From Ostreococcus lucimarinus (Eukaryota): a stretch of DNA of 64,000 nt. Shown here in pieces: positions 2,616 to 23,721 of the stretch (its first letter is position 1; each line of letters starts with the position of its first letter). The position numbers were made by a program, and so were the translations under genes. The stretch lies in NCBI GenBank assembly GCA_000092065.1, contig CP000600.1; one strand, written 5' to 3'. Below the pieces are notes generated by a model, which was not told where the DNA came from, did not search any database, and saw only the letters and a list, made by a program, of their open reading frames with translations.

Positions 2616-2662
2616 GCGCGCGCGCGCGCGCCGCGGGCGCGCGGCGGCCGCGCGCGCGCGCG

Positions 2663-5002: not shown

Positions 5003-6532
5003 ATGAGCTCGTCGTTCGCGAAAAAGCTCGCGGACAGCGATAAACGCGTGCGCGATAAGACGTTCGTGAACGTGTCGAAGTGGCTGGCCAGTCGCGAGAC
5101 GCTGACGGCGATCGATGGGAAGAAGCTGTGGCGCGGGTTGTTTTACTCGTATTGGCACGCCGACGGGAGAGCGACGCAGCTGGAGGTGGCGAATAAGATG
5201 GGAGCGCTCGTGCACGTGCTGAATCGCGAGGTGGCGATGGTGTACTTGGAAGCGGGGTTGTGGACGATGCGCACGGAGTGGGGTGGGATAGATAAGCACA
5301 GGATGGATAAGTATTGCTTGTTGACGCGACGCGTGTTGCACCACGGGTTTCGATTCGCGGGCGAACGAGGATGGGATATGGCGGATGATATCGGACGCGC
5401 GATGGCGGAGGCGATATTTGGGGCGCCGAAATCGGCGCAGTTGGAGGGTATCGGGTTCAAGTTGCACGTGGCGGAGGTGTTTTTGAGGGAGGTTGAGGCG
5501 GTGTGTAAGGGTGAGACGGGTTTGGCGATGGACGACGGGGAGGAGGAAATCGAGGCGGGCGCTCCGACGCCGATTCCGAGCGGCGCACTCGCGGCGTTGG
5601 TGGTCGTTTTCATCAACGCCATGCAGAAGGAGGAGAGCAATGTGTTGCTCAAGCGCATCCGCACCGACGTGTTCGAACCACTGACGGATGCGTCGCGAGC
5701 GAGCGAGGATCCGCGCGCGCCGCGTTTGACACCGAGTGCTTTGAAGAAACTTTACGAGCGCGCCATCACGCTCGGTGCCGAGCACGGCGTCGACGATGCG
5801 TGCAGAGAGTCGTTATACGAGTTACACGCCATGTTGAAGAAAGGCGCGAGCAAGATCAAGAAGGACGCCGAGGCGCGTGGTGAGGATCCAGAGGCGGAGG
5901 ACGTCGCGTCGCCACCGAAAAAGCGTAAGCAGAACGGCGTCTCGCAAGAGAGCGCCGGACTCGTCAACGGTTCGACTGCGAAGAAAAAGAAGAAGACGAA
6001 ACGCAAAGTCGACGAAGTCGACAAGCCCGTCGACGAAGAGGCCGCGAAGAAAGAAAAGAAACGTCGTAAGCGCGAACGTCGCCTGGCGAAGGAGCTCGCC
6101 GCGCGAGAAGCAGAGGAAGAGCGAAGCGCTAAGAAGAAGAAGAAGAAAAAGTCAAGCTCAAAGTCATCCGATGATGCCGCGACGGCAAAATCGTCAGACG
6201 CGTCAGAGAGGAGTGGATCGAAGCTGGTCGCCATGCGCGCCGTCGTGGACCGCGGAAACTCCGCGTCGCCGACGCCGTCGCTCGACTCGCTCGACTCCCC
6301 GTCCATGTCCCCGAGATCGAAACGCTTGATGTGGAACGACGAAGGCATCACGTATTCATCCCCGGACCTCCGGGGTCCGATCAACACGAAACGCGGCAAG
6401 CAAAATCTTCGTCTGACGCCGACGAAGACCATCTTCCGTCCGATTCACGGCAAGACCCACAGCGCGCCGCCGAAGCAGACCAAAACAAAGCTCTCCAACG
6501 GCGTCAAGCGTTCCGCCGAAGCATTCTTCTGA
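5003..6532 (+). CDS. RRP1: Ribosomal RNA processing protein 1 / Nop52 (nucleolar) with a Lys-rich C-terminal tail
   Basis: The N-terminal SSSFAKKLADSDKRVRDKTF..LWRGLFYSYWHADGRATQLEVANKMGALVH matches the Nop52 domain. The C-terminus is KKKKKTKRK-rich and NLS-like. Confidence 0.7.
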   Translation: MSSSFAKKLADSDKRVRDKTFVNVSKWLASRETLTAIDGKKLWRGLFYSYWHADGRATQLEVANKMGALVHVLNREVAMVYLEAGLWTMRTEWGGIDKHRMDKYCLLTRRVLHHGFRFAGERGWDMADDIGRAMAEAIFGAPKSAQLEGIGFKLHVAEVFLREVEAVCKGETGLAMDDGEEEIEAGAPTPIPSGALAALVVVFINAMQKEESNVLLKRIRTDVFEPLTDASRASEDPRAPRLTPSALKKLYERAITLGAEHGVDDACRESLYELHAMLKKGASKIKKDAEARGEDPEAEDVASPPKKRKQNGVSQESAGLVNGSTAKKKKKTKRKVDEVDKPVDEEAAKKEKKRRKRERRLAKELAAREAEEERSAKKKKKKKSSSKSSDDAATAKSSDASERSGSKLVAMRAVVDRGNSASPTPSLDSLDSPSMSPRSKRLMWNDEGITYSSPDLRGPINTKRGKQNLRLTPTKTIFRPIHGKTHSAPPKQTKTKLSNGVKRSAEAFF

Positions 6533-6692
6533 CGAACGCGCGCGAAACCAACCGACGACGACGACGACGACGATGATCCGATTTACATTACCACACTACT
6601 CCTCACTCTTCATTGTAACACGAATGTGTCTCCATACGTAGAAACGCCCTCGCTTCGTCTTCGCGCCTCGCCGCACTCGCCGCCTCTTCGCC

Positions 6693-8201
6693 ATGCCCGC
6701 GCTCGAAGAGGTCGACTGCGAGTTCATCGGCCCCGGCGGCGCGCGCGTCGAACGCGCCCTCGGCGACGTCGTGCGATGTCCCGTCGCCGTTCGCGGCGCG
6801 TGCGCGACGAGCGACGCGCACCCGCGCGACGCCTCGCGTCAACAGTCTGATTCAGCGAAACCGTCGCTCGCGCGCGCGGTCCGCGACGCCGCGCTCTCGA
6901 ACGGCGCGCTCACGGAGATCACCCGCGCGCTGTCGCAGTCGACGCGCGACGGCGCGGCGCCGAAAGCCGCGCTGGCGTGGCACCCGACGAAGGAAATCTT
7001 GGCGACGACGGATGACGGCGGTCGGTGCGCGACGCGCGACGCGGCGATGGATGATAAAGGCGCGGTGCGGGCGCGGAAACGCGCGAGCGACGACGAGAGC
7101 GAGTGCGAGGACGAGGTGACGACGCTGCGGCATCGCGCGCACGGACGGTGCGCGGCGATGGCGTGGCGGCCGAGACGGGGACGAGCGCTCGCGCTCGCGG
7201 GCGCGTCGGGCGTGTGCGTTTGGACGCGAGAGCGACGCGCGACGCGCGCGTCGAGCGCGGTTGCGAGCGAAACAGGAGCGCTAAGCCCGGTCGATGCGGC
7301 GAAAGTGCGAGCGTTGGCGCAGCGCGGGACGAGCGGGAAGACGAGCGGGTACCGTTGGAGGCTTACGATTTACAACGAGCGCGGAGCGCACGAGGCGGGG
7401 CCGACGGCGCCGCCGGGCGGGATATGCGCGTCGGAGTGCGTAGCGTGGAGCCCAGATGGACTTTTACTCGTGGCGTGCTCGCGAAGGTGTCGCGTGATTC
7501 ATTGCTGGGACGTGAGCGCGGGGACGTACACGCCTTTGGGCGGCGGCGGCGCGGGCATCTCCAGAGTCGCCTTCAGCGCGTGCGGAGGTTACCTTCTCGC
7601 CGCGCACGTGGGCGAGGGCTTTAGCGTTTGGCAGTGCGACACGATGACGTGTAGAAAGTGGAGCACGAACGGGCGCGAGGTGACCGCGACGGCCTGGGGC
7701 AACGTGCAAGGGAAGCAGGGAGACGCTCCGGTGGCGTTGATAGCCACGCGCGGTTCGGCGAAGCTCTCCGCCGTGCATCTTTCGCCCAGGGATTGCGTGA
7801 ACGAGATTGCGGCTCACGTGTTACCCTTAGAACTCCCGGACATCGTCGGCGGCGACGCCTCGCGATCTGGGACGAGCGAGCACGACGTCGCGGACATGGT
7901 TTGGGACGCGTCGAGCTCGCGCCTCGCGCTCGCGTTGCGCGGCGGCGACAGAGACGGTGTCGTCGCCCTCTACGCCACGCGCACGACAAACATCGTCAGC
8001 AGCAGTCTGATCGGATACTTCGACACCGCGGATGACGATACCGGCGCGCGCGTACCGGCGCAAGCGGTTAAAATTTCCACCCCGCTCGCCGTCGCCGCCG
8101 GCAGACTCCGCGCGACGCTCGCCGTCGCCTTCGCCAACGGCGACGTCGCCCTCGTCCCGCTCACCTTCGCCGACCCGTCCCTCGCGAGCGCGGCGTCTTA
8201 G
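6693..8201 (+). CDS. WD40-repeat protein, possibly aladin (AAAS)-like nucleoporin
   Basis: The pattern ..LAWHPTKEILATTDDGG..AAMAWRPRRGRALALAGASGVCVW..VAWSPDGLLLVACSRRCRVIHCWDV..VAFSACGGYLLAAHVGEGFSVWQ parallels the aladin repeats (AWHPH..SLAWKPLSASVLAVAC..IW). The assignment is tentative. Confidence 0.4.
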   Translation: MPALEEVDCEFIGPGGARVERALGDVVRCPVAVRGACATSDAHPRDASRQQSDSAKPSLARAVRDAALSNGALTEITRALSQSTRDGAAPKAALAWHPTKEILATTDDGGRCATRDAAMDDKGAVRARKRASDDESECEDEVTTLRHRAHGRCAAMAWRPRRGRALALAGASGVCVWTRERRATRASSAVASETGALSPVDAAKVRALAQRGTSGKTSGYRWRLTIYNERGAHEAGPTAPPGGICASECVAWSPDGLLLVACSRRCRVIHCWDVSAGTYTPLGGGGAGISRVAFSACGGYLLAAHVGEGFSVWQCDTMTCRKWSTNGREVTATAWGNVQGKQGDAPVALIATRGSAKLSAVHLSPRDCVNEIAAHVLPLELPDIVGGDASRSGTSEHDVADMVWDASSSRLALALRGGDRDGVVALYATRTTNIVSSSLIGYFDTADDDTGARVPAQAVKISTPLAVAAGRLRATLAVAFANGDVALVPLTFADPSLASAAS

Positions 8202-8315
8202 TTTTTTAGCGGCGAGACACGAGCGCGATCGCTCGCGCGATCGATTGTGATACCGACGGCGTCGGCGTTCGCTCCGGAACCGTCTCGTCCCGAGCCTCAC
8301 TCAAAGACGCACGCC

Positions 8316-9304
8316 ATGCTCGCGAGCGCGCGCCTCGTCGCCCCCGCGTCCGCGTCGCGACGCCCGACGACGTCCCCGAGCGCGTTCCGCGCGCGCGCGT
8401 CGCGCGCGATCGCCGCGCGCGCCGGTAAGAAGCGTTCAATATTCGAAGGTGCGTCAGAGCGCACAGACGTCACGCGACCGAGACTGACGACGCCGCGCGC
8501 GCGCGCGACGCAGAGATGCTGGACGTCATGGAGGGTGGCCCTAAACTGCGCCGCTGGTACGGTTCCGATAGCTCCGTCGGCGACGGCACCGGAGCGTCGG
8601 GCGACGAGAACGGCGACGAGACCGCGGCGTACGGCGACGCCGACGAGGCCGACGAGGACGACGACGACGTCGAGTTGAACCTACCCAAGACGAGCATTTT
8701 GGTCACGAACGCGGACGGCGCGCTCGGAGAATCCATCGTGGTGCAATTGATATTGGCCAAGGCGAGCGTGGTGGCGGCGTGCGAGGCGGAACAGATCGTC
8801 GGCGCGGAGACGCGGTTCGGTCCGTACGTAAACGTGGTGTCGAACTCGATGAGCGCGGGAGCGCGGTTGAACGGCGTGCGCGCGATGGTGGTGACGGACG
8901 CGCTGGAGGAGGATTTATTAGCGGCATGCGTGCGGAGAGGGGTGAAACACGTCGTGCTGGTGTCGAGCGCGAAGAGCGCGGGCGGCGGGTTGTTTCCGAG
9001 CGCCAACGAAAAGGCTCGACGAGATAAAACGAGAGAAGAGCTGGCCAAGCGAAGCGGCGTCGCGCTCACCATCATTCGACCGTGCAGCGTGAAATCATCA
9101 CCGTCGCAAGGTCGAGAGATAAGATTTGGACAGGGCGACACGCTCACGGGGGAGGTGAGCATGGAGGATTTGGCAGAAGTGTGCGCTCGTGCGCTCACGC
9201 GTCCGCCGAAGCCCGGCGAATCTCTCGAGTTCGAAGTCTCCAACGGCGCCGCCGCCGCCGAGCGCGACTGGAAAGCGTTATTCGCACCTCTAGTCATCGT
9301 TTAG
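8316..9304 (+). CDS. NAD(P)-binding Rossmann-fold protein (atypical SDR / NmrA-like), probably plastid-targeted. It has 2 exons, 8316..8448 and 8514..9304.
   Basis: Exon 1 (MLASARLVAPASASRRPTTSPSAFRARASRAIAARAGKKRSIFE) looks like a transit peptide and ends at the donor g|GTGCGTC. A 65-nt intron carries GACTGACGACG and the acceptor CGCAG. Exon 2 carries the SILVTNADGALGESIVVQL glycine-rich dinucleotide motif. Confidence 0.55.
8449..8513 (+). other. Intron (65 nt) of the NAD-binding protein gene
   Basis: GTGCGT donor, ACTGACG branch box 22 nt before the CAG acceptor. It joins two ORF-track frames into one protein with a plausible transit peptide. Confidence 0.55.
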
Positions 9305-9360
9305 CTACGCTATACATTCTATCAATACAACACCGAATTCGTTTCGTTTCGTCCCGTGAG

Positions 9361-9693
9361 CTAAACCATCATCCAGCGCCAGCGCGTCGCCATCCACGCC
9401 TCGACGTCCACGTCCGCCCCCAATCCCGCGACGTCGTCCCCCGCGCGCGCCCCGATCGACAGCTCTTGCAACTCGCTCGCGAACGACGCCCAAACGACGC
9501 CGCACGCGAGCACGAGCGCGAGCGTGACGACGCGTAACACCCAGCCCTCGGTCGTCGTCGTCGCCGCGTCTGGCTTGACGAGCAGCGCGGCGCGCTCGCC
9601 GCGCCGACGCCGATCGGGATTTTCGTCTCGTCGCTTGTCGCGTCGCGCGCGCACGAACGGAAGAAAAGAGAAGACGGCGCCGAAGAGACCCAT
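9361..9693 (-). CDS. Small hypothetical membrane protein (110 aa, two hydrophobic segments)
   Basis: ATG-initiated minus ORF (CAT at 9691-9693) between two convergent genes. It has hydrophobic stretches LFGAVFSFLPFV and WVLRVVTLALVLACGVVWASF. There is no homolog, so it is reported with low confidence only. Confidence 0.25.
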   Translation of the reverse strand: MGLFGAVFSFLPFVRARRDKRRDENPDRRRRGERAALLVKPDAATTTTEGWVLRVVTLALVLACGVVWASFASELQELSIGARAGDDVAGLGADVDVEAWMATRWRWMMV

Positions 9694-9764
9694 CGCGCGG
9701 CGACGTCTGCGGTTCGACGCGGCGACGAGTGGCGAACTACGACGCTTCCTAATGACACGTCGAT

Positions 9765-10759
9765 CTAGGCAAGGTTACTCAGGGGAACCAGACTTTGAGG
9801 CGTGGTCGGCGCTCGACACAGCGGACACTCGGGCTTTTTGCTCGCCCACCCCGCGATGCAGCGCCAGCAAAAGACGTGACCGCACGGCGTCGCCGTCGGC
9901 GATTCGCGAGGCGAGAGGCAGAGCGCGCACTTGGCGGCGATCAAAGGCGACGTGGATTTCGATTTTCGAGACGCCGACGCGCCTTCGTCGACGGGATTAC
10001 CGAAGACGTCGAGCCGCGGCGATGCGACGATCGCGGCTTCGATCGCCGGCGAGCCGTCGGATTCGAGCACGCGCGCGCCGACGGACGGCGCCCCCGACGT
10101 CTCGCTCGACCCGCCCCCGCGCGCGAAGCTCGCGACGTTTTCGCACGTCACGACGGCGAGTTGAAACGCCACGAACACGCCTAACAGCGCGTAACTCGGC
10201 CGTTCCTCGCCCGCGTACGCCCCCGTGAACGCGCGTCTCGTCCCGCTCGCTCGGCAGCTCCAATCGTAATACTCCCCGTTCGCGTAAAACAGCGCCAAAT
10301 GCGCCGCGTTCGCGAACCCACCTCGCGCGTCGATCATCGCCTGCCCGTGCGACGTCGTCTCATCCCCCATCCCGCGCTCGACGCGTCGTCCCACGAGCGC
10401 CAGCGCCGTCCTCGCGCTCGCGTCCATCGCTCGCGTCGCCGCGCTCGTCTCCCCGCCCCCCAGCCCGACGCCGCGTTCGTGATTTCGCACCACGCACCCC
10501 CGCAGCTCGCGCGCGATCTCCTCGCCGAACGCATCGATCACGAACCGCGTCCAGAGCGCCCGCGCGCTCGATTTCCTTCCCCGCGCGTCCCCGCTCGCCA
10601 AGTCGCAGTACTCCTCGCCGAGCGTCGCGCGTCCGCTCAGGTACGTCAGCGCCGGGTACGCCGCCCGCCCGCACGCCCGCAGCGCGCGATTCCACCGCAC
10701 CGACAGTCGAGGTCCGAGCGCGCGCGCGCACGCGTCGTGCAGTCGCTCGGCCGTCGCCT

Positions 10760-10793
<34 letters not shown>

Positions 10794-10969
10794 TCGTCAG
10801 TCGTCAAAGTCGTTACGTCATCGCGTCGTCGCGTCGTCGCGTCGCGCGCGTCGTCGCGCGTCGCGCGCGCGTCCGGTGGACGCACCGCGGCGTGCGTCTC
10901 GTCCTTTTGCGCCGCGCGCACGACGTCGGGCCGCGCCGCGCGCGGGAATCCGCGCGAGCGCGTCGCCAT
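9765..10969 (-). CDS. PEX10: Peroxisome biogenesis factor 10 (RING-finger peroxin), 2 exons: complement(join(9765..10757,10886..10969))
   Basis: Exon 1 ([28 protein letters not shown]) matches the human PEX10 N-terminus (VIRAAQKDEYYRG). The minus-strand donor is GTGCGTCC, the branch ACTGACG sits about 36 nt before the acceptor CAG, and exon 2 continues [24 protein letters not shown]3HC4 RING ([39 protein letters not shown]). The ORF track 'start' at 10700 is a GTG inside exon 2. Confidence 0.7.
10758..10885 (-). other. PEX10 intron (128 nt) containing a (GCGTC)n microsatellite
   Basis: Minus-strand GTGCGT donor, (GACGC)n tract, ACTGACG branch (plus strand CGTCAGT at ~10795-10801), CAG acceptor. 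Confidence 0.6.
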
Positions 10970-11182
10970 GGATGCGTCCCGAAGTGCCGCGCCACGCGTC
11001 GACGCGCGCGCGTCGTCGCGCGCGCGTGCCACTCGCATATACGCGCGCGCGACGACGCGCGTCGCGCGGCATGGCGTCGACGGTCGAGCGCGTGGGACGC
11101 GCGCGCGCGCCGGTTCGGAAAACCATCCTCACGCATCCCGACGACGACGCCGACGCGCTCGCGCTCGGATGCGCGGTGCACG

Positions 11183-11273
11183 GTGCGTCGCGCCGCGTTT
11201 GAACGCGAACGGCGCGCGCGCGCGCGAGATCGGGGACTGACGCGACGCCGACGACGGCGCGACGCTTGAACAG
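11183..11273 (+). other. Candidate 5'-UTR intron (91 nt) upstream of the FKBP-like/TPR gene
   Basis: GTGCGTCG donor at 11183, GGACTGACGCG at 11234-11244, CAG acceptor at 11271-11273, 60 nt before the ATG at 11333. The two flanks cannot be joined into one frame with the CDS, so if real it is non-coding. Confidence 0.3.
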
Positions 11274-11332
11274 CGCACTTTTCGCTTCGCGACGCGACGA
11301 CGGGCGAGACGCTGCGCGACACGAGGGAAGAC

Positions 11333-12232
11333 ATGGAACCGATTCAGTTCACGCTGAGCGCGCGGACGGGCATCGCGGACGAGGAGGGAAGGACGCGCGA
11401 CGGCCCGGCGCGCGTGGAGGCGCTGGACGCGTGCGCGATGACGATGCGAGTGGGCGAGCGGGCGACGTTTGAGTGCGGGGCGGCGCTGGCGTACGGGAAG
11501 GAGGGGAACTTTTCGTTCCCGGCGGTGGGGAAAGACAGGGCGGTGGTGTTGGATTTGGAGATATTGGGCGCGCGGGGGAGCGCGGCGGCGCCGGAGATGC
11601 GACAGAGGGACATGACGTACGAGCAACGGGTGGAGCGCGTGCGCGCGCATCGATCGAACGGGAACGCGGCGTTCGCGGGGGGGCGCGCGCGCGAGGCCGT
11701 GCGCGAATACTCGATGGCGTTGACGTACTTGACGGAAGATTTTATGATGCAGTTGTTCGATAAGTACGAGGTCGAGGCGCACGAGGAGTTCGTCGCCGCG
11801 CACGGGAATTTGGCGGCGGCGTATTTGCGATTGGGCGCGTTCGAAGACGCGGTGACGCACGTCGGGTACGTCTTGAAGGTGGACGAGAACAACGCAAAGG
11901 CGTATTACAGGCGCGGTAAGGCGCGAGCGGGTTTAGGGCAGGAGGACGCCGCGAGAGAAGATTTTTTAAAGGCTAAGAAAATTACCGAAGCCGCGGGCCT
12001 CGTCGACGCGAACGTCGTCAAGGCGTTGCGAGAGATCGACGCGGCGATTCGTGATCGCGAGCGGGCGACATCGGCGGCGTTCAAGGGTATTTTCAATACG
12101 AAAACGGACGGTGGCGACGCATCGTCGAATGCCGACGCGAACGTCGCGCGAAAACCGCCGGATGGTGGCGGTTCGTTCATCTCTCGCGCAGTCGCGTCAT
12201 TATTTGGAAAATCGAGGCGCGAGGGGCCGTGA
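11333..12232 (+). CDS. FKBP-like PPIase domain plus TPR-repeat co-chaperone (AIP/FKBP-like family)
   Basis: N-terminal FKBP-like fold (MRVGERATFECGAALAYG..DRAVVLDLEILG). C-terminal TPRs (NGNAAFAGGRAREAVREYSMALTYL..AAHGNLAAAYLRLGAFEDAVTHVGYVLKVDENNAKAYYRRGKARAGLGQEDAAREDF). The ATG at 11333 has a good context (aagacATGG). Confidence 0.55.
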   Translation: MEPIQFTLSARTGIADEEGRTRDGPARVEALDACAMTMRVGERATFECGAALAYGKEGNFSFPAVGKDRAVVLDLEILGARGSAAAPEMRQRDMTYEQRVERVRAHRSNGNAAFAGGRAREAVREYSMALTYLTEDFMMQLFDKYEVEAHEEFVAAHGNLAAAYLRLGAFEDAVTHVGYVLKVDENNAKAYYRRGKARAGLGQEDAAREDFLKAKKITEAAGLVDANVVKALREIDAAIRDRERATSAAFKGIFNTKTDGGDASSNADANVARKPPDGGGSFISRAVASLFGKSRREGP

Positions 12233-12259
12233 GCGCGACACCTCGACGCGTGAAGCAGC

Positions 12260-14218
12260 ATGTCGGAAGAACCGAAAGAAATCACAGGCGCCACTGCGCT
12301 CTGCAAAGTCGCCGCGGCCGGAGGCGTCGAGGTGTGCTTCGCTAATCCCGGGACTTCAGAGATGCACGTCGTCGGCGCGCTGGCCGAGTGCGCGGATATT
12401 CGCAGCGTCCTCGTTCTCCACGAAAACGTCGCCACGGGCGCGGCGGACGGGTACTCTCGCGTCAAGCGCGACGTCAACCGCGATCGAAACGCGATGGCGA
12501 TGACTCTTTTGCATCTCGCCCCTGGCTTGATGAACGGACTTTCGAACTTGCACAACGCGAGCCGCGGCCGGAGCTCCATTCTCAACGTCGTCGGCGAGAT
12601 GAGCACGTTTCATCGAGGTAACGAAGCCCTGTTGGAGAACGATATCGAGTCGCTCGCGCGGACGGTGTCGACGAAATACGTGCACACGAGTGCGGCGGTG
12701 GATGCGATCGCGAGTGATGCTGCGGACGCGATCGAAGCGGCGCTTCGACACCGCGGCGTTGCCACGCAAATCGTGCCGCACGATTTGACTTGGTCTCGCG
12801 TGTTGGACAGTGGCAGACTGAGCGACGCCATCGCGCGCGCCGAAAACGTTCGCAATAGAAGAGACGGCGCCGAAGACGTGGTCGTCACTGATGCCGTTCG
12901 CGCTTTTCTGCGTGAAATGCTCGCTCGCGCGAAACCGTTGGCGCGCGGCGAAGTTCTCTTTTACATCGGAGGCGATGCGTGCGGCGAGGAAGAACTGCGG
13001 ATCGTCGGCGACGTCGCGGAAGCGCTCGGTGCGGACGTGGTGTGTGAGTGCTTCTTTTCTTGCATCGAACGCGGTGGCGATATGCCCAAAGTGCAGCGCG
13101 CGCCTTACTTTCCGAAAGACGCGGCGAACGCGTTCGCCAAGTACAAAGTCGTCATTTTTCTCGACGTGCCGCGACCGCCAACGGCGATGTTCGGCTACCG
13201 CGATTCTCCGACGAAGTTGTTCGCACAGAACGACGACGACATGTGGTTTGTCGATCCTCCCGGAAACGCGATGATGCTTGACGTCTTGCGCGCGCTCGCG
13301 ATGGAAGTGAATATCGGCGTTCAATGCGCGCCGAAGATGTCAGACGTCGCCGCCGTCGTTGAGCACGTCGTTTCCGAAGCGCTCGCGAAATCGGTCGAGG
13401 ACAAGGAGGATAGTTTGTGGAACTACGGGATGACGAGCACGAAGGCAGTGAGCGTGCACGACAAACTGTGCAAAGAGTTCGACATCAAGTTACAATCGAC
13501 GATTGTGTTCAATCACAATTCGATCAACGCGCTCACGAACGCCGTCGCGACAAAGCTCGGCATCGCAGACGAATCACCGAAGACTGCGATCGCACCGAAG
13601 GACGTAGACGCCAGCCCAAAGTCCACGCTCGAGGGTGAATACGTCCAAGTGCGATGCGATTCACCGACGGGCGCCTTGAACGGTGCCAAGGTGTGTCGAA
13701 TCATAGCCGGCATGCAACCAGCCGGCGCGATCGTCGTGGACGAATCGCTCACCTCTGGATCGACGTACTGGAAGGACAGCGAATCGTCGGCGCGTTTTAC
13801 GCACATGACGCTCACCGGCGGTTCCATCGGTTTCGCGAACGCCGCGGCGGTCGGGGTCGCTTTGGCCGCGCCCGAGAGACAAACGATCGCGCTCGTCGGC
13901 GACGGTTCGGCTCAATACACCGTCCAGGCCCTTTGGACGCAGGCGCGCGAGAAACTCAACGTCGTCACCGTGATCATGAACAACTCCAAGTATCAAATTC
14001 TCCGCGTCGAGTGCGCTATCCAGGGCGTTCGCGCGTCCGGAGGCGCGTGCGACTCGCTCACGAAACTCGACGACCCCTCGATCGACTGGTGCAAACTCGC
14101 CGAAGGGTACGGTGTTCGCGGCGTCCGCACCACTACCTGCGAGGAGTTTGCAGACGCGTTCGCGCGCGCGCTCGACGCCGACGGTCCGACGCTTATCGAT
14201 GCTGTTTTAGAGGCGTGA
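12260..14218 (+). CDS. Thiamine-pyrophosphate enzyme of the acetolactate-synthase family with an embedded acyl/peptidyl-carrier-protein-like insertion
   Basis: The N-terminal Pyr domain (VCFANPGTSEMHVVGALAE..ATGAADGYSRV), the central domain and the C-terminal PP domain (LTGGSIGFANAAAVGVALAAP..ALVGDGSAQYT..VIMNNSKYQI) are canonical. About 110 extra residues lie between the central and PP domains. They contain DSLWNYGMTSTKAVSVHDKLCKEFDIKLQSTIVFNHNSINALTNAV, matching the PP-binding consensus (GxDS..lfehPTi..La). Confidence 0.7.
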   Translation: MSEEPKEITGATALCKVAAAGGVEVCFANPGTSEMHVVGALAECADIRSVLVLHENVATGAADGYSRVKRDVNRDRNAMAMTLLHLAPGLMNGLSNLHNASRGRSSILNVVGEMSTFHRGNEALLENDIESLARTVSTKYVHTSAAVDAIASDAADAIEAALRHRGVATQIVPHDLTWSRVLDSGRLSDAIARAENVRNRRDGAEDVVVTDAVRAFLREMLARAKPLARGEVLFYIGGDACGEEELRIVGDVAEALGADVVCECFFSCIERGGDMPKVQRAPYFPKDAANAFAKYKVVIFLDVPRPPTAMFGYRDSPTKLFAQNDDDMWFVDPPGNAMMLDVLRALAMEVNIGVQCAPKMSDVAAVVEHVVSEALAKSVEDKEDSLWNYGMTSTKAVSVHDKLCKEFDIKLQSTIVFNHNSINALTNAVATKLGIADESPKTAIAPKDVDASPKSTLEGEYVQVRCDSPTGALNGAKVCRIIAGMQPAGAIVVDESLTSGSTYWKDSESSARFTHMTLTGGSIGFANAAAVGVALAAPERQTIALVGDGSAQYTVQALWTQAREKLNVVTVIMNNSKYQILRVECAIQGVRASGGACDSLTKLDDPSIDWCKLAEGYGVRGVRTTTCEEFADAFARALDADGPTLIDAVLEA

Positions 14219-14267
14219 GTTCTAGAATCGCTCGCTCGCTCACGTACATTTCATGTTCATTTTACAA

Positions 14268-15572
14268 TCAACTCTCCGTCTCAACGTGCGCCAACGCCGC
14301 GGCTCTTCGCTCTTCCGTCAACGCGTGCGAGGCAAACTTTTTGTGTCGCGAGAGCGCGTCGCTTTCTTCTCGCACGCGCGCGTCTAGAACGCTCACCGCG
14401 CGCAGTCCCCGCTTCAACGCCTCTGCGATGTCTTCGATCGTCGCCGACGATTCGTCGCCCTCCGAGAAACGCACGACGCCGTCGACGCCGTCGATGCGCG
14501 CGGCTATTTCGCCTCGCACAATCATACCGTACAACACTCTTTCCGCGGCTTCGACGTCTGAGAACCCGATCGCGCTCGCGAAATCCCCCAAGCGAAGCGT
14601 CGAGTACGTCTTCGCGAGCGAACGCGCTTTCGCCGCGACGGCTCGATCGCGCACGAGCGCGACCAATCCGGCGTTTCCGTCGAGCTCGTACGTCGCCTCG
14701 TGTCGCTCGACGACGTCGGCCAGCTCCTTCGCGGCGTCGCGTTTCTTCGCAGCCGCGAGCAGCGACGCGTACGCGTCGCACTCGCGCGACGTGGAGTACT
14801 TCTTCGCCGGCGACGAGAACGTCGACGCGTCGGCGACGGCGTCCGCCAACAGCGTCGCCAGCGCGTACTTTTTATACGCCGCCACCGCGATGGCGCTGAG
14901 CGCCGTCGCGGGCGCGCTCAGCGCGTCTTGAAACCACCGCGCGGCTTCGGGATATCGTCGCAACGCCAAGAGCGCGCGACCGCCGTAGTAGCACCGCAGC
15001 AAAAAGTCCGTCGCGTCCAGCGCCGGGGCGACGTCCATCGCCGGCGCGGCGAGAATCCCATCGCTCGCCGCGAGCGCGTCGTACGCCTTCAGCTTCAAGC
15101 ACACTCGCAAGTAACACGCATCCTGCGGCGTGATCACCGCCTCGCTCTGCGCGCGCGCCATCGCGACGTCGCGCGCGCGTCCGAGCGCCTCCGCCACCGT
15201 CCGCCCGTCCGCCCCGCGCGCGCGCCCTCGACACCAAAGCTCGCTCAAACCGCGACACACGTCCGCGAAATCCCACGCGTCGTCGTCTTCGCCCTCGCCC
15301 TCCTCGATCGACGCCTCGACGCACGCGCGCACCGCGCGCGCCGCGAATGCCTCGTCGTCCGCCTCGTCGTCCTCGTCGCCCCGTCCCTCTCGCGCCCTCC
15401 CCACCGCCTCCCGCGCGTACGCCGCGAGCGCCGCGCGCGCGAACCCACGCCTCTCTACCTCCGTCGCGCCCTCCAGCTCGCTCGCGTCGTCCACGAACGT
15501 CCGCCACCGCGTCGCCGCGTCGCCGCGTCTCTTCTCGCCGCGTCCCATCGCGTCCCGCGTCCACGCGTCCAT
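14268..15572 (-). CDS. COPS3: COP9 signalosome complex subunit 3 (PCI domain)
   Basis: The stretch CYYGGRALLALRRYPEA..AYKKYALATLL..KKYSTS..LAKTYSTLRLGDFASAIGF..VLYGMIVRGEIAARIDGVDGVVRF aligns to human CSN3 ([66 protein letters not shown]). The first plausible ATG is at 15570-15572. The ORF track extends further to an upstream Met at 15815. Confidence 0.75.
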   Translation of the reverse strand: MDAWTRDAMGRGEKRRGDAATRWRTFVDDASELEGATEVERRGFARAALAAYAREAVGRAREGRGDEDDEADDEAFAARAVRACVEASIEEGEGEDDDAWDFADVCRGLSELWCRGRARGADGRTVAEALGRARDVAMARAQSEAVITPQDACYLRVCLKLKAYDALAASDGILAAPAMDVAPALDATDFLLRCYYGGRALLALRRYPEAARWFQDALSAPATALSAIAVAAYKKYALATLLADAVADASTFSSPAKKYSTSRECDAYASLLAAAKKRDAAKELADVVERHEATYELDGNAGLVALVRDRAVAAKARSLAKTYSTLRLGDFASAIGFSDVEAAERVLYGMIVRGEIAARIDGVDGVVRFSEGDESSATIEDIAEALKRGLRAVSVLDARVREESDALSRHKKFASHALTEERRAAALAHVETES

Positions 15573-15907
15573 CGCCCCTCGCGCTCTCGCGCGCGCCGCC
15601 GAGCGCCCGCGCGGTTCCCTCGTCGCGTGCCTCGACGACCGTCGTCGTCGCGGCGCGTGCGCGAGCGTCGCGCTCGCCGTCGACGCGCGGTGTCGCGCGT
15701 CGTCGTCGCGCGCGCCGTCCGACCGCGACGACGTCGTCGGCGTCTGAATCGTCGTCGCGTCGCGCGCGCGCGTCGACGCGCGCGCGCGTCGACGCGCCTC
15801 CAGCGCCGCGCGCATCGCGTCGCGTCGTCGACGTCGACGGGGCGTCGCGTCGTCGCGCGACGCGCGATGACGAACGATCGATGCGTGGACGGTGGTCGAC
15901 GCCGACG

Positions 15908-15928
15908 CCCTAAACCCTAAACCCTAAA
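15908..15928. repeat. Interstitial telomere-type repeat (CCCTAAA)3, i.e. a telo-box-like element, in the divergent spacer between CSN3 and the glutaredoxin-like gene
   Basis: gCCCTAAACCCTAAACCCTAAAaaa, the reverse complement of the plant-type telomere unit TTTAGGG. It lies about 340 nt from each flanking ATG. Confidence 0.8.
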
Positions 15929-16004
15929 AAATTTAGGATACTTCACTCAAGGAGAGCTTTTAGATGATATATTCATCAAAGCACCACGATCTCATCCGCG
16001 CGCC

Positions 16005-16211
16005 AATCGGCGAATCGGTTTCGTGTTACGGGTCCGACGCCGTGACGGCGACGACGTGCGTGGCGCGAAATTAGGGGAAATTGCGCGCGCACGACGAAAA
16101 AATTAGTGACCATCGTCACCGACCTCAACACAAACGTGCGGTCGAACCGCCGTCGCGCGCGCGCGAATCGGCGAATCGGTTTCGTGTTACGGGTCCGACG
16201 CGTGACGTCAC
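16005..16211. repeat. Two copies of a ~45-bp direct repeat (AATCGGCGAATCGGTTTCGTGTTACGGGTCCGACGC..GTGACG) about 160 bp apart in the glutaredoxin-like gene promoter. Copy 2 ends in the palindrome GTGACGTCAC (CRE/C-box-like).
   Basis: Copy 1 at ~16005-16050, copy 2 at ~16166-16211. A 36-nt stretch is identical between them. An inverted repeat GTGACcatcGTCAC and an AT-rich TATA-like GATATATTC lie between and upstream. Confidence 0.7.
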
Positions 16212-16251
16212 GACACATCTACACATCTCGACGACGACGACGACGACGACG

Positions 16252-16400
16252 ATGGCGATGGCGATGGCGATGGCGACGGCGACGCGCTCGACGGCGACGA
16301 TGGCGAGGACGACGCGCGCGATGGCGGCGACGGCGCGCGCGGGGCGCGGCGCGCGGGCGTCCGGCGCGCGCGCGGTGAAGATGCCGATGAAGATGACGAA

Positions 16401-16436
<36 letters not shown>

Positions 16437-17427
16437 GGCCGTGCGCGAGGACGACGAGGACGCGTCGAGCGAACCGGAGATCGTCGAACCGAGCGCGATG
16501 CGCGAACCGACGACGACGACGACGACGCCGGACGCGACGTCGGAGGTGATTCGCGTCGAGACGCGCGCGGAGGGCGAATACGAGCTGCGGCAGACGACGA
16601 CGCCGAAGAGATTCGCGGTGGCGGACGGCGAGCTTCTGAACGTGGCGACGGCGGCGGCGCCGATCGCGCTGCGATGGACGAGCGGATTGATGTGTCACGG
16701 GTACGAGGCGAAGGTCGTGGACGGCGAGGTCGGCGAGGGCGAGTACGCGGTGTGGTCGGGGAGCGGGAAGGCGGTGCGGGAGACGTCGGACGTCGCGAAG
16801 TTCCCTCGCCCGGAGAAGCCGCTGAAGATGTACCAGTTTCAGGGATGTCCGTTTTGTAAGAAGGTTCGCGAGGCGGTGATTTCGTTGGATTTGGACGTGA
16901 TTTACTACCCGTGCCCGAGAGACGGGCCGGAATATCGCGAATTCGTGCGCGCCGAGGGCGGACGCGCGCAGTTTCCGTATCTCGTCGACGACAACACCGG
17001 GACGAAAATGTACGAAAGCGACGACATCATCGCGTACATGTACGAAAAATACGGACCGGGCAAGGCAAACATCGGTCCGGCGTTGACGAGCGGAACGCTG
17101 ACCTCCGTCACGGCGGGTTTGGCGCTGTTGCCGAGACTCGGGAAAGGGTCGGCGTACGCGCCGTCGAAGAAGCCGGAAAACATGCAACCGATCGTGTTTT
17201 ACGGCTACGAGGGTAGTCCGTTTTGCGTTTTAGTGGCGGAAAAGTTGTGCGAGTTGGAGCTGCCTTACCTGCAGCGGTCGTGCGGACGAGGCTCGCCCAA
17301 GCGTCAAGAGTTGTTCGACAAGCGCGGCACGTTTCAAGTGCCGTACATCGAGGACCCCAACACCGGCATCGCCATGTTCGAATCGAAGGACATCGTCAAC
17401 TACTTACAAGAGCAGTACGCGGCGTAA
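16252..17427 (+). CDS. Thioredoxin-fold protein with two glutaredoxin/GST-N-like domains (CPFC active sites), probably plastid-targeted
   Basis: Two repeats of xYxFxGCPFCKKV..D..Y and VFYGYEGSPFCVLV..PY..DPNTG..ESKDIV.YL. The N-terminus (MAMAMAMATATRSTATMARTTRA..) is transit-like. Poly-Thr runs are encoded by (ACG)n. Confidence 0.6.
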
Positions 17428-17539
17428 CGACTTTCCGCCGCTCGAGAGAGAACGAACACACTTGTAACGAATACGCAGCAACGATTTTTTTAGTGTAGAC
17501 GCGATACGCGCTGTGTGGATATTAAATTCCAGATTTTTA

Positions 17540-18724
17540 TCAACGCTTCGAGTACGTCGGCGGGTTGCCCTGCGTGACGCGACAATACTTCAGTAACTGC
17601 GCCTCGATGTTTTGCCCCGGCCGCGCCTGGCCTTTCAAATACGGATCGAGCTCGCTCAGCGTCCATCGCGGTTTCACCGCCCAGAGCGCGGCGAATCGAT
17701 CGCCCGGCTCCCTCGGTAAATCGCTCGCGATGAGCGTGCGCACGAACGCCTCCGCCGCGCGCTCGGGTCGATCGATGAGCGCCAAGCCCGAGAGATACTC
17801 TTCCTTGGCCTCGACGTGCCCGAGATTGAACTCGCTCAGCTTTTCGCGCCACTGGTCCATCATTTCCACCAGACGCCACGCCTTCAATCCAGCGCCGTCG
17901 CGCAGCACGCGCTGCGCCAACGCTCGACACACGGCTTCTTCGTCTAGCGCCCACGTGGCGTCGACATCGTGTTTCGTCGCGAACGCGTGAAGCGTGTTTC
18001 TCGCCATCTCCGGCGCGAACCCGTCGCTCGCCATCGCGTCCACGACGGCGTCCGTCGGCAACGCGCTCGTCGACCATCCGTTCCCGAACGCGCTCGCCGT
18101 CATCATCGCCAACGCATGTAACCTGTACTCCGCGTCCACGCCGCGCCACTTCCCATCGATCTCGATGGCGACGATTTCCTCTTGCAAGCACTTTAAAATC
18201 TCCAACTCGCTCGCCTGCACGCGCGCGTTCAACTCGTCGAACCCGAATCCCACGCCCTCGCCCTCGCCCTCGTCCGCGTCCATCGCCTCCGCCGTCCCGG
18301 CGTACGCCACGCTCGCCATCATCTCTCGCAACCGATCCAACCGCGGCGCGATCTCCGTCAAATCCAAATGCGAGCTCGTCTGCGCTCGAACCGTCGCGCG
18401 CCGCGGCCCGTCCTCCTCCTCCTCCATCGCCTCCGTCTCGTCCTCCTCGCCCCCCAACGCCGGTCCGACGATCAGGCACTGATTCGACGATTCCACGCGC
18501 GTCACCTGATACGTCTTCGACCGCGTGCACACCACGGCGACGTCGTCGGGCTCGCCCTTGAACGCGATGACGCCGTCGTTTGAAAGAATCTCGCTCAAGA
18601 TTTCCTCGTCAACCTCCAGCAGCTCGACGCGTTCGCTCGCGTAGTCGGCGCCGCGGACGAGATCGAACTCTTCGCCGTCCTCCGCGACGAAGGCGCCGTT
18701 CGCGACGGCGTCGCGGCGCGACAT
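17540..18724 (-). CDS. DSCC1: Sister chromatid cohesion protein DCC1 (Ctf18-RFC subunit)
   Basis: KTYQVTRVESSNQCLIVGP and LSGLALIDRPERAAEAFVRTLIASDLPREPGDRFAALWAVKPRWTLSELDPYLKG parallel human DSCC1 (KTYDLKIADTSNMLLFIPG; LKGLALVDRHSRPEIIFLLKVDDLPEDNQERFNSLFSLREKWTEEDIAPYIQD). Confidence 0.7.
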   Translation of the reverse strand: MSRRDAVANGAFVAEDGEEFDLVRGADYASERVELLEVDEEILSEILSNDGVIAFKGEPDDVAVVCTRSKTYQVTRVESSNQCLIVGPALGGEEDETEAMEEEEDGPRRATVRAQTSSHLDLTEIAPRLDRLREMMASVAYAGTAEAMDADEGEGEGVGFGFDELNARVQASELEILKCLQEEIVAIEIDGKWRGVDAEYRLHALAMMTASAFGNGWSTSALPTDAVVDAMASDGFAPEMARNTLHAFATKHDVDATWALDEEAVCRALAQRVLRDGAGLKAWRLVEMMDQWREKLSEFNLGHVEAKEEYLSGLALIDRPERAAEAFVRTLIASDLPREPGDRFAALWAVKPRWTLSELDPYLKGQARPGQNIEAQLLKYCRVTQGNPPTYSKR

Positions 18725-18763
18725 GGGTCGAGAAATGGCGTCAGAGCGCGACGCGCGGTCGAC

Positions 18764-20631
18764 ATGGGCGCGACCGATGGGACGAGCGCGCGCGAGGCGC
18801 GTCGAAAGGCGCGCGAGTTGGAGGAGGGTCGAAAGGTGCGCGCGCGCTCGCGCGCCGAGCGCGTCGACGCGTCGCGCGAGCGACGCGCGGACGACGCGCG
18901 AGGACGATTTCGTCGCGCGCCGCCCGCCATTCCTCGCGACATTCGTTTCGTCGCGCCTCGACGCGACGCGACGCGCGCGACGGCGGTGGACTGACGGCGA
19001 CGACGCGTTCGCGCGCGCTCCAGGCTGGGTTGATCCCGCACGAGATCGATGAGGACGGGAACGCGATCAACCCGCACATTCCTCAATTCATGGCGGCGGC
19101 GCCGTGGTACCTGAAGCAAGACGGGCCGGGATTGAAACATCAAAAGGCGCCGAAAAAAGCCGAAGAGAGCGCGGAGTGGTACAAGAGAGGCGTGACGACG
19201 ACGAAGGCGACGAAATTTCGTAAGGGGGCGTGCGAGAATTGCGGAGCGATGACGCACAAGAAGAAGGATTGCATGGAGCGGCCGCGCGCGAGAGGCGCGA
19301 GCAAGACGCAAAAGGACATCGCGGCGGACGAGTACGTGCAACCGGAGTTGAAGCTTGGGTTTGAGAGTAAGCGCGATCGGTATAACGGATTCGATGTGGA
19401 TGATTACGTCAAGGTGGTGGAGCGATACGAGGCGGCGGACGCGATGAAGCAAAAATTGGCCAAGCAAAAAGAGTTGGAACGCGCGTTTCGGCGGGCGAAT
19501 AAAAAGGAGGACGACGCGGCGAGCGACTCGGATTCGGACGATACGAGCTCCGACGACGACGACGACGACGACGCGAAGGTTGCGGATAAGGCGGCGACGG
19601 GGTTTGCAAACATCAAACGCGCGGTGCGCGCGCCCGGAGGGGGCGCTTCCGGCACGGTGCGTAACTTGCGTCTTCGCGAAGACACGGCGAAATATTTGCG
19701 CAACCTGGATGTGGATTCGGCGTACTACGACCCAAAGACGCGCTCGATGCGCGAGAATCCGACGCCGAACGCCGATCCCAAAGACAACTTCTTCCGCGGT
19801 GATAACGCGGCGCGAAATGACGGGCAAGTGGTGGAGTTTGAGCGTTTGAATCGTCACGCATGGGAGCAGGCGGAAGCCGGCGGCGCGAGCGCCATTCACA
19901 TGCAAGGCGCGCCGTCGCAAGCCGAGGCGCTGTACAAGCAATTCAAAGAAAAGAAGGAAAAGCTCGCGGGAATGAATAAAAAGAACATCATGGAAAAGTA
20001 CGGCGACGCGAGCGCGGGCAAAGAGCTTCCCGACGGTTTGGCGCTCGGTCAAACGGAGCAATACGTCGAGTACGACCGCGCGGGCCGTCTCATCAAGGGA
20101 ACCGAAAAAGCCACGGTGAAGAGTTGTTACGAGGAGGATGTCCTTTTGCAAAATCACACCAAGGTTTGGGGCTCGTACTGGAACGCCGGTCAGTGGGGTT
20201 ACGCGTGTTGTCAAAGCATGGTGAAGAACTCGTATTGCACGGGCGAGCGCGGCGTCGAAGCCGCGCTCGCGAGCGAGCAACTCATGGTGGACAACATGGA
20301 GAACAAGCGCGCGATGGACGAGGCGAACGAAGCGCGAGCGAAGTCGCAGCTCAACGCGACGACGAAACCGAGCGATCTGTGGGGTGGTGATGTCAAGGAT
20401 GACGTCGAGATCGATCCTCAAAAGCTCCTCGAAGCCTTGAAGCGGCAAGACGAACGCGAGGAAGCGCTCAAGCGCGGCGGCGACGGGAAGAACAAGCGCG
20501 GGTACAACGTCACGCACGATTCGCAAGTCACGGCGGAAGACATGGAGGCGTATAGGATGAAAAAGCGCGCATTCGAGGACCCGATGAAAAAAGCGTCGGG
20601 CGCGGGGACCGATGGTTACGATCTAGTGTAG
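18764..20631 (+). CDS. SLU7: Pre-mRNA-splicing factor SLU7 (CCHC zinc knuckle), 2 exons: 18764..18835 and 19024..20631
   Basis: Exon 1 MGATDGTSAREARRKARELEEGRK matches human REDWRKKKELEEQRK. It then runs through a GTGCGC donor, a 188-nt intron with GGACTGACGG and CTCCAG, and exon 2 AGLIPHEIDEDGNAINPHIPQFMAAAPWY..CENCGAMTHKKKDC. The ORF-track N-terminus (18580-) overlaps DSCC1 and is untranslated. Confidence 0.8.
18836..19023 (+). other. SLU7 intron (188 nt)
   Basis: GTGCGCGC donor, ACTGACG branch 40 nt before the CAG acceptor. It restores the conserved SLU7 N-terminal motif. Confidence 0.65.
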
Positions 20632-20668
20632 AAATTGTATAGCAAGTTTGAGCGATTCGCCCTTAAAG

Positions 20669-21865
20669 TCACGCCGCGACGGCGATCTCGTCCGTGAGAT
20701 TGCTTTCGACCGCGCTCACTTTCTCAATCCATCCATCTAAACGCCCGGCGAGTTCGGCGATTTGCGAGCGTAACAAGACGCGAGGTTGGACCCACGTCAC
20801 GATGACCTTGCTCTCGACCTGGTCGATGATGCCTTCGATCAAGTGTACGCTCAGCGCCTTCATGAGCAAGTACTCCACGCCGTCCGTGGTCAGCTTCGTC
20901 TTCACCGCGATGTCGCTCAAAGAAATCTCTCGATGCTCGGCGGGAAGTTTGAATATGATTTGCAACAGGGACAAGATCGTAATCTTCTCCCGAAGCCTGC
21001 GCTCGTTCGCCACGAGCGCGGGTTGCGCGTTCAAAGCCGCGGCGTGCTTGACGCACAACTGATCGTACTCGTGTAAATCGCCCTCGTTGAACGCCTTGAC
21101 GACGTCCATCAACCACGCGAAAGGCCCATCATTCAAACTCTCCACTATCGGATGCGCGAGAAGCTCGGCGAAATTGTACACGTTCTCCCCGAGCAAAGCG
21201 GCGAGACACAAGTCGACGCTCAACGCCGCGCGCGTCTCCGCGGGCAACATTTCGCACGACACGTACGCCAAATACAACATGCCCGACTTGTAAAACTCGG
21301 CGTAATTTTCCCGCACCTTGTAATACCGACTCGCGACGTAATGATACGCCGCGCTGACGCTCGGATCCGGCGCCGGCAACGCCTCCAACGCTTCTTTATC
21401 GCCCTCCGTCACCGCGCGTTTGGCGTACTCTAAATCCCCCGCCACCAATCTCAACAGCGTCACGTGCGCCGCGACGTACACCCCCGGTTCCCTCGCATCG
21501 TCCCCGTGCGCCGCCACCAACCTCGCGCTCGTCTCCGTCAGGAATTCCACCGCTTCTTCCCCGGTCAACGCGTCGCTCACCGCCACCGCCACGTGCGCCG
21601 TCTTCAACGGATTAAACCTCGTCTCCGCCTCCCTCACCACGCCGTCGTACATCCCTCGCAGGCCTCCCGGGAGAAGCGCCACGCGCGCGTTCATCGGCGC
21701 CGCCACCGCGCGCTCGATCGCCAGCGTCAGCTCGTGCCACAGCTTTTTCGTTCGCAAATCGCCGATCTCGATCAACAGCTCGCGCGTCTCGTCGTCGATC
21801 GCGCGCGCGGCGTCGATCGCGGCGTCCAGGTACGCCGTCCCGGCGTCGGGCGCCGCGGCGGGCAT
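20669..21865 (-). CDS. PSMD13: 26S proteasome non-ATPase regulatory subunit 13 (Rpn9, PCI domain)
   Basis: Near-collinear match to human PSMD13 (TKKLWHELTL; YAEFYKSGMLYLAYV; NFAELLAHPIVESL; FNEGDLHEYDQL; LMKALSVHLIEGIIDQVESKVIVTWVQPRVL). The ATG is at 21863-21865 (MPAAAPDAG..). Confidence 0.8.
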   Translation of the reverse strand: MPAAAPDAGTAYLDAAIDAARAIDDETRELLIEIGDLRTKKLWHELTLAIERAVAAPMNARVALLPGGLRGMYDGVVREAETRFNPLKTAHVAVAVSDALTGEEAVEFLTETSARLVAAHGDDAREPGVYVAAHVTLLRLVAGDLEYAKRAVTEGDKEALEALPAPDPSVSAAYHYVASRYYKVRENYAEFYKSGMLYLAYVSCEMLPAETRAALSVDLCLAALLGENVYNFAELLAHPIVESLNDGPFAWLMDVVKAFNEGDLHEYDQLCVKHAAALNAQPALVANERRLREKITILSLLQIIFKLPAEHREISLSDIAVKTKLTTDGVEYLLMKALSVHLIEGIIDQVESKVIVTWVQPRVLLRSQIAELAGRLDGWIEKVSAVESNLTDEIAVAA

Positions 21866-21998
21866 CGCGTCGGCGCGCGTCGCGTCGCGCGTCGCGTCGT
21901 CGTCGCGTCGTCGCGTCGAGGTGTCGCGACGGACGCGTCGGCACACGACGACGCGCGCGACGCGCGACGCGCGCGGCGAGCGCGCGGCGCGGCGCGGG

Positions 21999-23708: not shown

Positions 23709-23721
23709 CGCGTCATCGTCG

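Follow-up and report, generated by a model that had tools for sequence, protein, structure and literature searches.

Locus and domain organization

The window is the whole 64,000-nucleotide stretch of Ostreococcus lucimarinus contig CP000600.1 (assembly GCA_000092065.1) that was analysed, and it has a G+C content of 63.6%. It contains a gene for a thiamine diphosphate (ThDP) enzyme that holds, within the same chain, a domain with the predicted fold of an acyl carrier protein (ACP). The gene is an uninterrupted open reading frame (ORF) at 12260-14218 on the plus strand and encodes the 652 amino acids (aa) given in the original prediction. That prediction described an acetolactate synthase (ALS) family enzyme with an internal carrier-protein-like domain at 13312-13640, which corresponds to aa 351-461; the core sequence that it quoted is aa 384-429 (nt 13409-13546). 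The gene has the following features.

12260..14218, plus strand: complete coding sequence of the ThDP enzyme with embedded carrier domain (uninterrupted ORF, 652 aa plus stop)
12284..12631, plus strand: core of the pyrimidine-binding (Pyr) domain (TPP_enzyme_N, aa 9-124; Pfam), which holds Glu55 and His85
12809..13306, plus strand: middle (beta) domain, about aa 184-349, predicted alpha/beta (NF005760 alignment through aa 359; AlphaFold2 (AF2) secondary structure)
13328..13564, plus strand: inserted ACP-like domain, aa 357-435 (PF00550, PDB profile matches, AF2, Foldseek, ratio of non-synonymous to synonymous substitution rates (dN/dS))
13436..13438, plus strand: codon of Ser393, the predicted phosphopantetheine attachment site, in Y-G-M-T-S (invariance, start of helix II, Pks13 alignment)
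13565..13669, plus strand: Ser/Pro/Thr/Lys-rich flexible tether from the carrier to the PP domain, aa 436-470 (low predicted local distance difference test score (pLDDT); variable among orthologues)
13670..14215, plus strand: PP (ThDP diphosphate-binding) domain, aa 471-652 (TPP_enzyme_C, aa 518-647)

The closest named relative is the Ostreococcus tauri protein XP_003082888.2 / CEG02008.1 (64% identity), which is annotated as 'Thiamine pyrophosphate enzyme, C-terminal TPP-binding'. Marine metagenome assemblies contain an identical protein, whose 90% cluster numbers 114, including one from a TARA surface sample.

The ThDP scaffold

Pfam analysis of the whole protein gives TPP_enzyme_N at aa 9-124 (E 1.9e-19) and TPP_enzyme_C at aa 518-647 (E 5.9e-31). 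The NCBIfam family NF005760/PRK07586 matches with a score of 494.5 bits, where the cut-off is 363. Around the insert the match is split in two, and its first stretch aligns aa 9-359 to profile positions 2-326. By these profile matches, the protein is a benzoylformate decarboxylase (BFD)-like member of the NF005760/PRK07586 ThDP family. The family consists of ThDP enzymes of about 512 aa from Alphaproteobacteria and green algae under the nominal name 'acetolactate synthase large subunit', and no paper on it was found. The window protein shares 42-47% identity with the bacterial and chlorophyte members and agrees with them in its Pyr, middle and PP domains and in the invariant residues.

Two more specific assignments were rejected. 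A biosynthetic ALS is not supported, since TIGR00118 reaches 96.3 bits where 538 are required and PF00205, the FAD-binding-type middle domain, is undetected even at E <= 10. The earlier assignment to the ALS family therefore gives way to a BFD-like one, and the central domain is not the canonical one it was taken for; PF00205 misses the region and only the NF005760 profile covers it. A strict BFD was also rejected: NF005485 scores 188 bits against 493, Ser26 of BFD corresponds to a Thr and His281 has no conserved counterpart.

The closest solved relative is nevertheless the BFD of Pseudomonas putida (MdlC, 1BFD; the sequence used for alignment is identical to 1BFD chain A), with which the 4-hydroxybenzoylformate decarboxylases are grouped as the closest known relatives. 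It gives sequence E-values of about 1e-38 to 1e-40 and the best Foldseek matches, and the best PDB stretch of the window protein aligns to BFD residues 344-521. Both proteins have E47, E28, H70 (BFD numbering) and the GDG-NN motif, and neither has a FAD-type middle-domain signature. However, the identity is about 27-29% and, in addition to the two residue differences above, BFD has no carrier domain.

The cofactor-activating Glu55 (codon nt 12422-12424) aligns with BFD E47 and His85 is the equivalent of BFD His70; neither varies within the family. At aa 547-575 (nt 13898-13984) lies the GDGS-X-NN Mg-ThDP motif, with GDGS at 547-550 and NN at 574-575, and D548, G549 and N575 are invariant in the aligned orthologues. 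The signature of the ThDP superfamily (pyruvate oxidase/ALS/BFD type), an activating Glu together with GDG-X(24-27)-NN, is thus present. Since Glu55, the His70 equivalent and the GDG-X-NN motif are intact, the ThDP site looks catalytically competent.

The Pyr domain begins at residue 9 of the coding sequence that starts at 12260. No N-terminal extension or organellar transit peptide is apparent, which suggests a cytosolic location for the enzyme. Some orthologue ORF calls are 30-40 residues longer at the N-terminus; these may be artefacts of an upstream ATG.

The inserted carrier domain

Compared with the bacterial members of about 512 aa, the window protein has an extra segment of about 105 aa by family alignment, close to the roughly 110 aa first estimated between the central and PP domains. 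The segment, an ACP plus tether, is inserted at profile position ~326, which is the position of the middle-PP linker of BFD. It is absent from the aligned bacterial, Chlorella, Micractinium, Chloropicon and Pedinophyceae members, which have a short linker there.

The Pfam domain PF00550 (PP-binding) matches aa 369-428 of the whole protein with 27.4 bits (E 4e-6), above the gathering cut-off of 20.8, and the isolated segment with 31-33 bits. All 11 of 11 orthologue inserts are matched at the search threshold of E <= 0.1 (best E 5.9e-14), well outside what chance would give. When compared with the PDB, a profile of the insert retrieves almost only ACPs of polyketide synthases (PKS) and peptidyl carrier proteins (PCPs) of nonribosomal peptide synthetases (NRPS), with one non-carrier chain at E 0.22. 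The best matches are the module-5 ACP of mycolactone MLSA1 (6H0J, 2e-6) and the N-terminal ACP of Pks13 (7.5e-6). These type I PKS ACPs have the same fold as the insert, but they sit in megasynthases beside a ketosynthase or an acyltransferase and not inside a ThDP enzyme.

The AF2 model built from the insert alignment has a pLDDT of 85.9 and contains four helices at fragment residues 2-17, 35-49, 57-60 and 64-75. Helix II starts exactly at the invariant serine (fragment residue 35 is S393). In a Foldseek search with this model, the top 50 of 50 matches are ACPs or PCPs with a TM-score of about 0.7-0.83; the best have a TM-score of about 0.8 and a root-mean-square deviation of 1.3-1.8 Å. The significant PF00550 score, the predicted four-helix bundle with the serine at the N-terminus of helix II and the Foldseek matches all bear out the internal carrier domain that had been proposed. 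On this sequence and model evidence, aa 357-435 are a bona fide carrier fold of the PKS type. A search of a 5.8-billion-protein index with the insert profile retrieved one 52-aa fragment only, so the origin of the carrier is traceable no further than 'PKS-type'.

The full-length AF2 model (pLDDT 70, predicted TM-score 0.53, TM-score of 0.35-0.44 to BFD) is unfit for estimates of ACP docking or distance; it is confident for the ACP at aa 360-433. The pLDDT falls below 50 at aa 437-466, and the tether of about 35 residues after the carrier is probably disordered. The length and sequence of the tether vary among orthologues.

The predicted attachment serine

The serine that was originally placed at about nt 13436 is S393 (codon 13436-13438). 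S393 and G390 are invariant in 26 orthologue sequences. The attachment consensus that was claimed for this site stands in part: the Gly and the Ser are kept, but the Asp of GxDS is absent in all orthologues (G-x-[T/N/S]-S). The orthologue motif is G-[ML]-[TNS]-S-[TAR], which departs from the canonical G-x-D/H-S-L signature.

Ser393 aligns with the serine of the 'GLSS' motif in the N-terminal ACP of Pks13, whose phosphopantetheine attachment site is reported to be Ser55 (PMC11649247). The Pks13 domain has an Asp-less G-L-S-S-R-x-A, and the orthologues P0014 and P0015 are alike with GLSSRTAL. By analogy, the Pks13 precedent shows that an Asp-less motif of this type can be modified. A group II (Sfp-type) phosphopantetheinyl transferase (PPTase), which the original prediction had suggested looking for elsewhere in the genome, is listed for O. 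tauri (XP_003080746.1) and for Micromonas (PMC4103896).

Coding status and conservation

The G+C content at third codon positions (GC3) is 0.72-0.80 through the insert, which is the level of the flanks, and there are no stop codons. When the ACP segment is compared with a 96%-identical relative (L003), there are 10 synonymous and 6 non-synonymous differences, for a dN/dS of 0.15. The whole gene has a dN/dS of 0.16 in the same comparison, and its sole indel is a single in-frame codon in the tether. These values indicate that the carrier segment is under purifying selection. Both deposited O. tauri gene models keep the carrier segment, and the insertion and the serine are retained in the orthologues, including XP_003082888.2. 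An unrecognised intron, which the original prediction had raised as a concern, is excluded by the dN/dS, the one-codon indel, the O. tauri models and the GC3.

The carrier-bearing proteins are 605-681 aa long and fall into several clusters at 53-67% identity. Synteny with the window is found for the 96%-identical relative (L003/L004) and for three distant clusters (L007, L008 and L009). The shared order is Aladin, NAD-binding protein, Pex2/12, tetratricopeptide repeat (TPR) protein, ThDP enzyme, COP9 subunit 3, glutathione S-transferase (GST), Dcc1 and Slu7. By gene order, the carrier-bearing proteins of L003/L004, L007, L008 and L009 are positional orthologues. The domain is conserved in such orthologues of several distinct picoalgal lineages, O. 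tauri among them. The shared gene order and the conserved insert point to an insertion that is old and maintained.

Carrier domains elsewhere in the family

The syntenic locus is also found on contigs of 48% G+C (L005:10001-12136 and L006:10001-12136, versus window 11333-17427), which are labelled 'Bathycoccus-like' from their GC content only. The orthologue on these contigs (P0054, P0193 and P0046) is 708-727 aa long and matches NF005760 with 435 bits. It also has a PF00550 match (30.7 bits, aa 245-309) with the motif I-G-L-T-S, but in the linker between the Pyr and middle domains, where the profile breaks near 188; its middle-PP linker is short. The Ostreococcus-type and 48%-GC carriers share 20% identity, an hhalign probability of 93% and a common G-x-T-S. 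Either the carrier was relocated between linkers or it was gained independently. The middle-PP linker of the 48%-GC orthologue ('KKESLWRTD...') was considered as a decayed relic of the Ostreococcus-type ACP, and this is unsupported (hhalign probability 1.1%).

When 1.84 billion representative proteins were scanned exhaustively with HMMER and the matches were examined with Pfam, a further architecture emerged. P0270, P0326 and P0361 have the order ThDP, AMP-binding, AMP-binding_C and PP-binding, followed by about 600 aa; these C-terminal regions of P0270 and P0326 have no Pfam match even at E <= 10. The ThDP part of P0270 is of the NF005760 type (402 bits). Its adenylation domain resembles acyl-CoA ligases, such as feruloyl- and fatty-acyl-CoA synthetases and the o-succinylbenzoate-, oxalate- and malonyl-CoA ligases, and would therefore load a carboxylic acid. 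The fusion loci (L010:257-5626 and L011:257-5626 from TARA, L012:177-5387 and L013:105-5315 from JGI metagenomes) are single genes of 1736-1789 aa whose carrier has a canonical GGDS. A larger protein, P0362 (2251 aa), contains ThDP, adenylation, ketoreductase (KR), FSH1-type serine-hydrolase and GNAT domains as well as two PP-binding stretches, of which one is located at aa 1918-1969 after the hydrolase. In P0231, P0235 and P0363 the ThDP part is followed by AMP-binding, and PP-binding is not matched; P0231 and P0235, at least, look truncated. Each of the fusions is seen again on independent metagenome contigs.

Since the same family is joined to carriers in three different ways, the three-way joining constitutes Rosetta-stone evidence that argues for a functional link between ThDP enzyme and carrier, in a shared pathway or mechanism.

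A different fusion was observed in P0345 (957 aa, Logan metagenome), in which a major-facilitator transporter domain (MFS_1, aa 25-372) makes up the N-terminal part of the chain, ahead of a ThDP enzyme with 36% identity to the window protein. This fusion could be a hint at a small organic acid, taken up from outside, as the substrate.

Comparison with known carrier-dependent and ThDP enzymes

Oxalyl-CoA decarboxylase and 2-hydroxyacyl-CoA lyase (HACL) carry out non-oxidative ThDP chemistry at a carbonyl attached to a phosphopantetheine thioester. As a mechanistic analogy, they offer the simplest chemical precedent for an acyl-S-phosphopantetheine at a ThDP site; however, their thioester is on free CoA and the arm of the window protein would be protein-bound. 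No oxalyl-CoA decarboxylase or HACL name occurs among the best 25 of 58 NCBIfam families or the best 60 of 79 PDB sequences matched, and no dedicated comparison was made.

In 10-formyltetrahydrofolate dehydrogenase (ALDH1L1) and in the A-T-R (adenylation-thiolation-reduction) enzymes such as carboxylic acid reductase (CAR), an internal phosphopantetheine arm moves an intermediate between domains of one polypeptide. Like the window protein, these are metabolic enzymes with an internal carrier outside the PKS, NRPS and fatty acid synthase systems, and CAR structures are among the Foldseek matches of the insert. Their catalytic partners are different, being a hydrolase and an aldehyde dehydrogenase in ALDH1L1 and adenylation and reductase domains in CAR, with no ThDP. 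The 2-oxoacid dehydrogenase complexes do couple a ThDP intermediate to a flexible, protein-tethered thiol cofactor. However, their arm is a lipoyl-lysine disulfide that is also the oxidant and is located on a separate E2 subunit, whereas the window arm would be a mono-thiol phosphopantetheine on a four-helix ACP inside the ThDP enzyme; the redox logic cannot match. By analogy, the architecture resembles all three systems in its possible working and belongs to none of them.

Proposed mechanism and alternative explanations

The interpretation that we consider probable, with moderate confidence, is that the carrier inserted in the NF005760 enzyme presents an acyl group on its arm to the ThDP site. 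In this view, the surface linker between the middle and PP domains has taken up an acyl carrier domain of the PKS type, and the Sfp-type PPTase of the alga would attach phosphopantetheine to its Ser393. A trans-acting ligase or acyltransferase would then load a carboxylic acid as a thioester, and the swinging arm would bring the tethered acyl group to a ThDP site in the same oligomer. The chemistry there could be decarboxylation or lyase/synthase chemistry at the carbonyl adjoining the thioester, as in oxalyl-CoA decarboxylase and HACL. Another option is that a ThDP-bound donor is joined by carboligation to a tethered 2-oxoacyl acceptor, and the KR of P0362 would suit reduction of the keto product. 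Alternatively, the arm may capture the ThDP product for hand-off. By analogy, the non-oxidative routes would be the most economical chemically. Acyl transfer to the arm as in pyruvate dehydrogenase is less likely because a mono-thiol is not an oxidant and no redox-cofactor signature was found.

Several points weigh against this interpretation. The modification of the serine, the acyl substrate and the activity on it are putative. Every orthologue lacks the canonical Asp, and the serine is followed by T, A or R and not by L or I. No PPTase, PKS or ligase/acyltransferase loader was found among the 20 long ORFs of the window, of 280 aa or more, that were scanned. A plain thiol arm without an oxidant cannot take an acyl group from hydroxyalkyl-ThDP. 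The linker on the N-terminal side of the ACP is about 7-10 aa long, which limits mobility, and the quality of the full-length AF2 model is too poor to judge the reach of the arm to the active site. The bacterial and other green-algal members function without a fused carrier, and two bacterial NF005760 neighbourhoods (Hyphomicrobium, L001; Iodidimonas, L002) have no conserved partners and no ACP; therefore, the carrier is not intrinsic to the chemistry of the family. Substrate channelling on the phosphopantetheine arm, as originally suggested, is something that we infer; the idea is strengthened by the joining of the same ThDP family to carriers in two further architectures.

The carrier could instead be modified and loaded but serve a neighbouring step, a hand-off to a trans ligase, PKS or transferase, while the ThDP domain uses a free substrate or product; the fusion would then amount to co-localisation of a pathway. 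The carrier is PKS-like, and in the ThDP-adenylation-carrier fusions it comes after the ligase-like adenylation domain and before further domains, an order that an assembly line with an upstream ThDP domain acting on free acids would fit. The two picoalgal carrier positions also differ, which suggests that the place relative to the active site is not critical. However, both are internal insertions and not terminal ones, and they keep the carrier no more than tens of Å away from the oligomer's active sites; in addition, no partner genes were identified among the long ORFs scanned in the window. Co-localisation is considered unlikely, while still deserving attention.

A reading in which the insert has degenerated into an unmodified carrier-like fold, now co-opted for a structural, oligomerisation, regulatory or protein-docking role, is improbable. 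The replacement of the Asp by T, N or S in all orthologues, the non-hydrophobic residue that follows the serine and the modest PF00550 scores (23-33 bits in several members) would agree with such a loss, but Gly390 and Ser393 remain invariant in 26 orthologues whose pairwise identity goes as low as about 53%. The same G-L-T-S recurs in the 48%-GC carrier, which has a different place, the GLSS carrier of the Pks13 type is a bona fide holo-ACP, and the related fusions hold canonical GGDS carriers beside adenylation domains. An in-frame intron or an assembly or annotation artefact, by which the segment would be missing from the mature protein, deserves mention since the organism is eukaryotic. 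It is hardly credible given the open frame with GC3 as in the flanks, the 10 to 6 ratio of synonymous to non-synonymous differences and the nearby indel of exactly one codon. At the protein level, too, the segment persists in relatives with a whole-protein identity as low as about 53% and bears the signature of a folded domain, both O. tauri models keep it, and the protein occurs on many independent metagenome contigs.

A broader version of the tethered-substrate interpretation is more tentative, and we rate it as possible but somewhat short of even. The carrier-bearing NF005760 enzymes would form an unrecognised class of thiotemplated ThDP enzymes that arose at least three times in one family and makes or breaks C-C bonds on a phosphopantetheine-held thioester; in the abundant marine picoalgae of the Ostreococcus group, it would feed a lineage-wide metabolite pathway. 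The origins counted under the same tentative rating would be the two picoalgal linker insertions and the metagenomic ThDP-adenylation-carrier fusions.

Novelty and implications

Few catalytic platforms are as well studied as ThDP enzymes and carrier-protein thiotemplates, and to our knowledge no single polypeptide is known to combine them. No description of a ThDP enzyme with a built-in carrier domain was found in the literature. Automated annotation already flags PF00550 in these proteins; what is new is the domain architecture, which combines the known NF005760 scaffold and a PF00550 carrier. There is a reasonable chance that this architecture represents a new catalytic logic. If the arm does feed the ThDP site, it would provide a new route to acyloin, decarboxylation or lyase chemistry on tethered substrates, with relevance to enzymology and to one-carbon or acyloin biocatalysis. 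It would also point to a conserved metabolite pathway in very abundant marine picoeukaryotes, the Ostreococcus group. O. tauri is genetically tractable, and the metagenomic fusions offer a second, independent entry point with the loading domain encoded in cis.

Neighbouring genes

The long ORFs of the window encode eukaryotic housekeeping proteins, including Nop52, an Aladin-like WD40 protein, COP9 subunit 3, Dcc1, Slu7, PSD13, the largest subunit of RNA polymerase, MCM and SSRP1. The gene order from Nop52 to Slu7 (window 5003-21946) is strongly conserved on L003-L009, which are contigs of 48-66% G+C. Within this order, a TPR/FKBP gene precedes the ThDP-ACP enzyme and a tandem GST-N protein follows COP9 subunit 3. 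The TPR neighbour has an FKBP_C domain on L005 and L006, and the 299-aa version in the window shows TPR repeats only.

Two other long ORFs, at 2594-4777 on the plus strand (727 aa) and at 36857-38311 on the minus strand (484 aa), have no Pfam match at E <= 1e-4 and may be spurious or lineage-specific in view of the high G+C. The window also contains a 1736-aa ORF at 23705-28915 on the plus strand, with ResIII, Helicase_C and UvrB domains together with UvrC RNase-H-like endonuclease domains. From its domain content, this looks like a UvrB-UvrC fusion in a eukaryotic picoalga.

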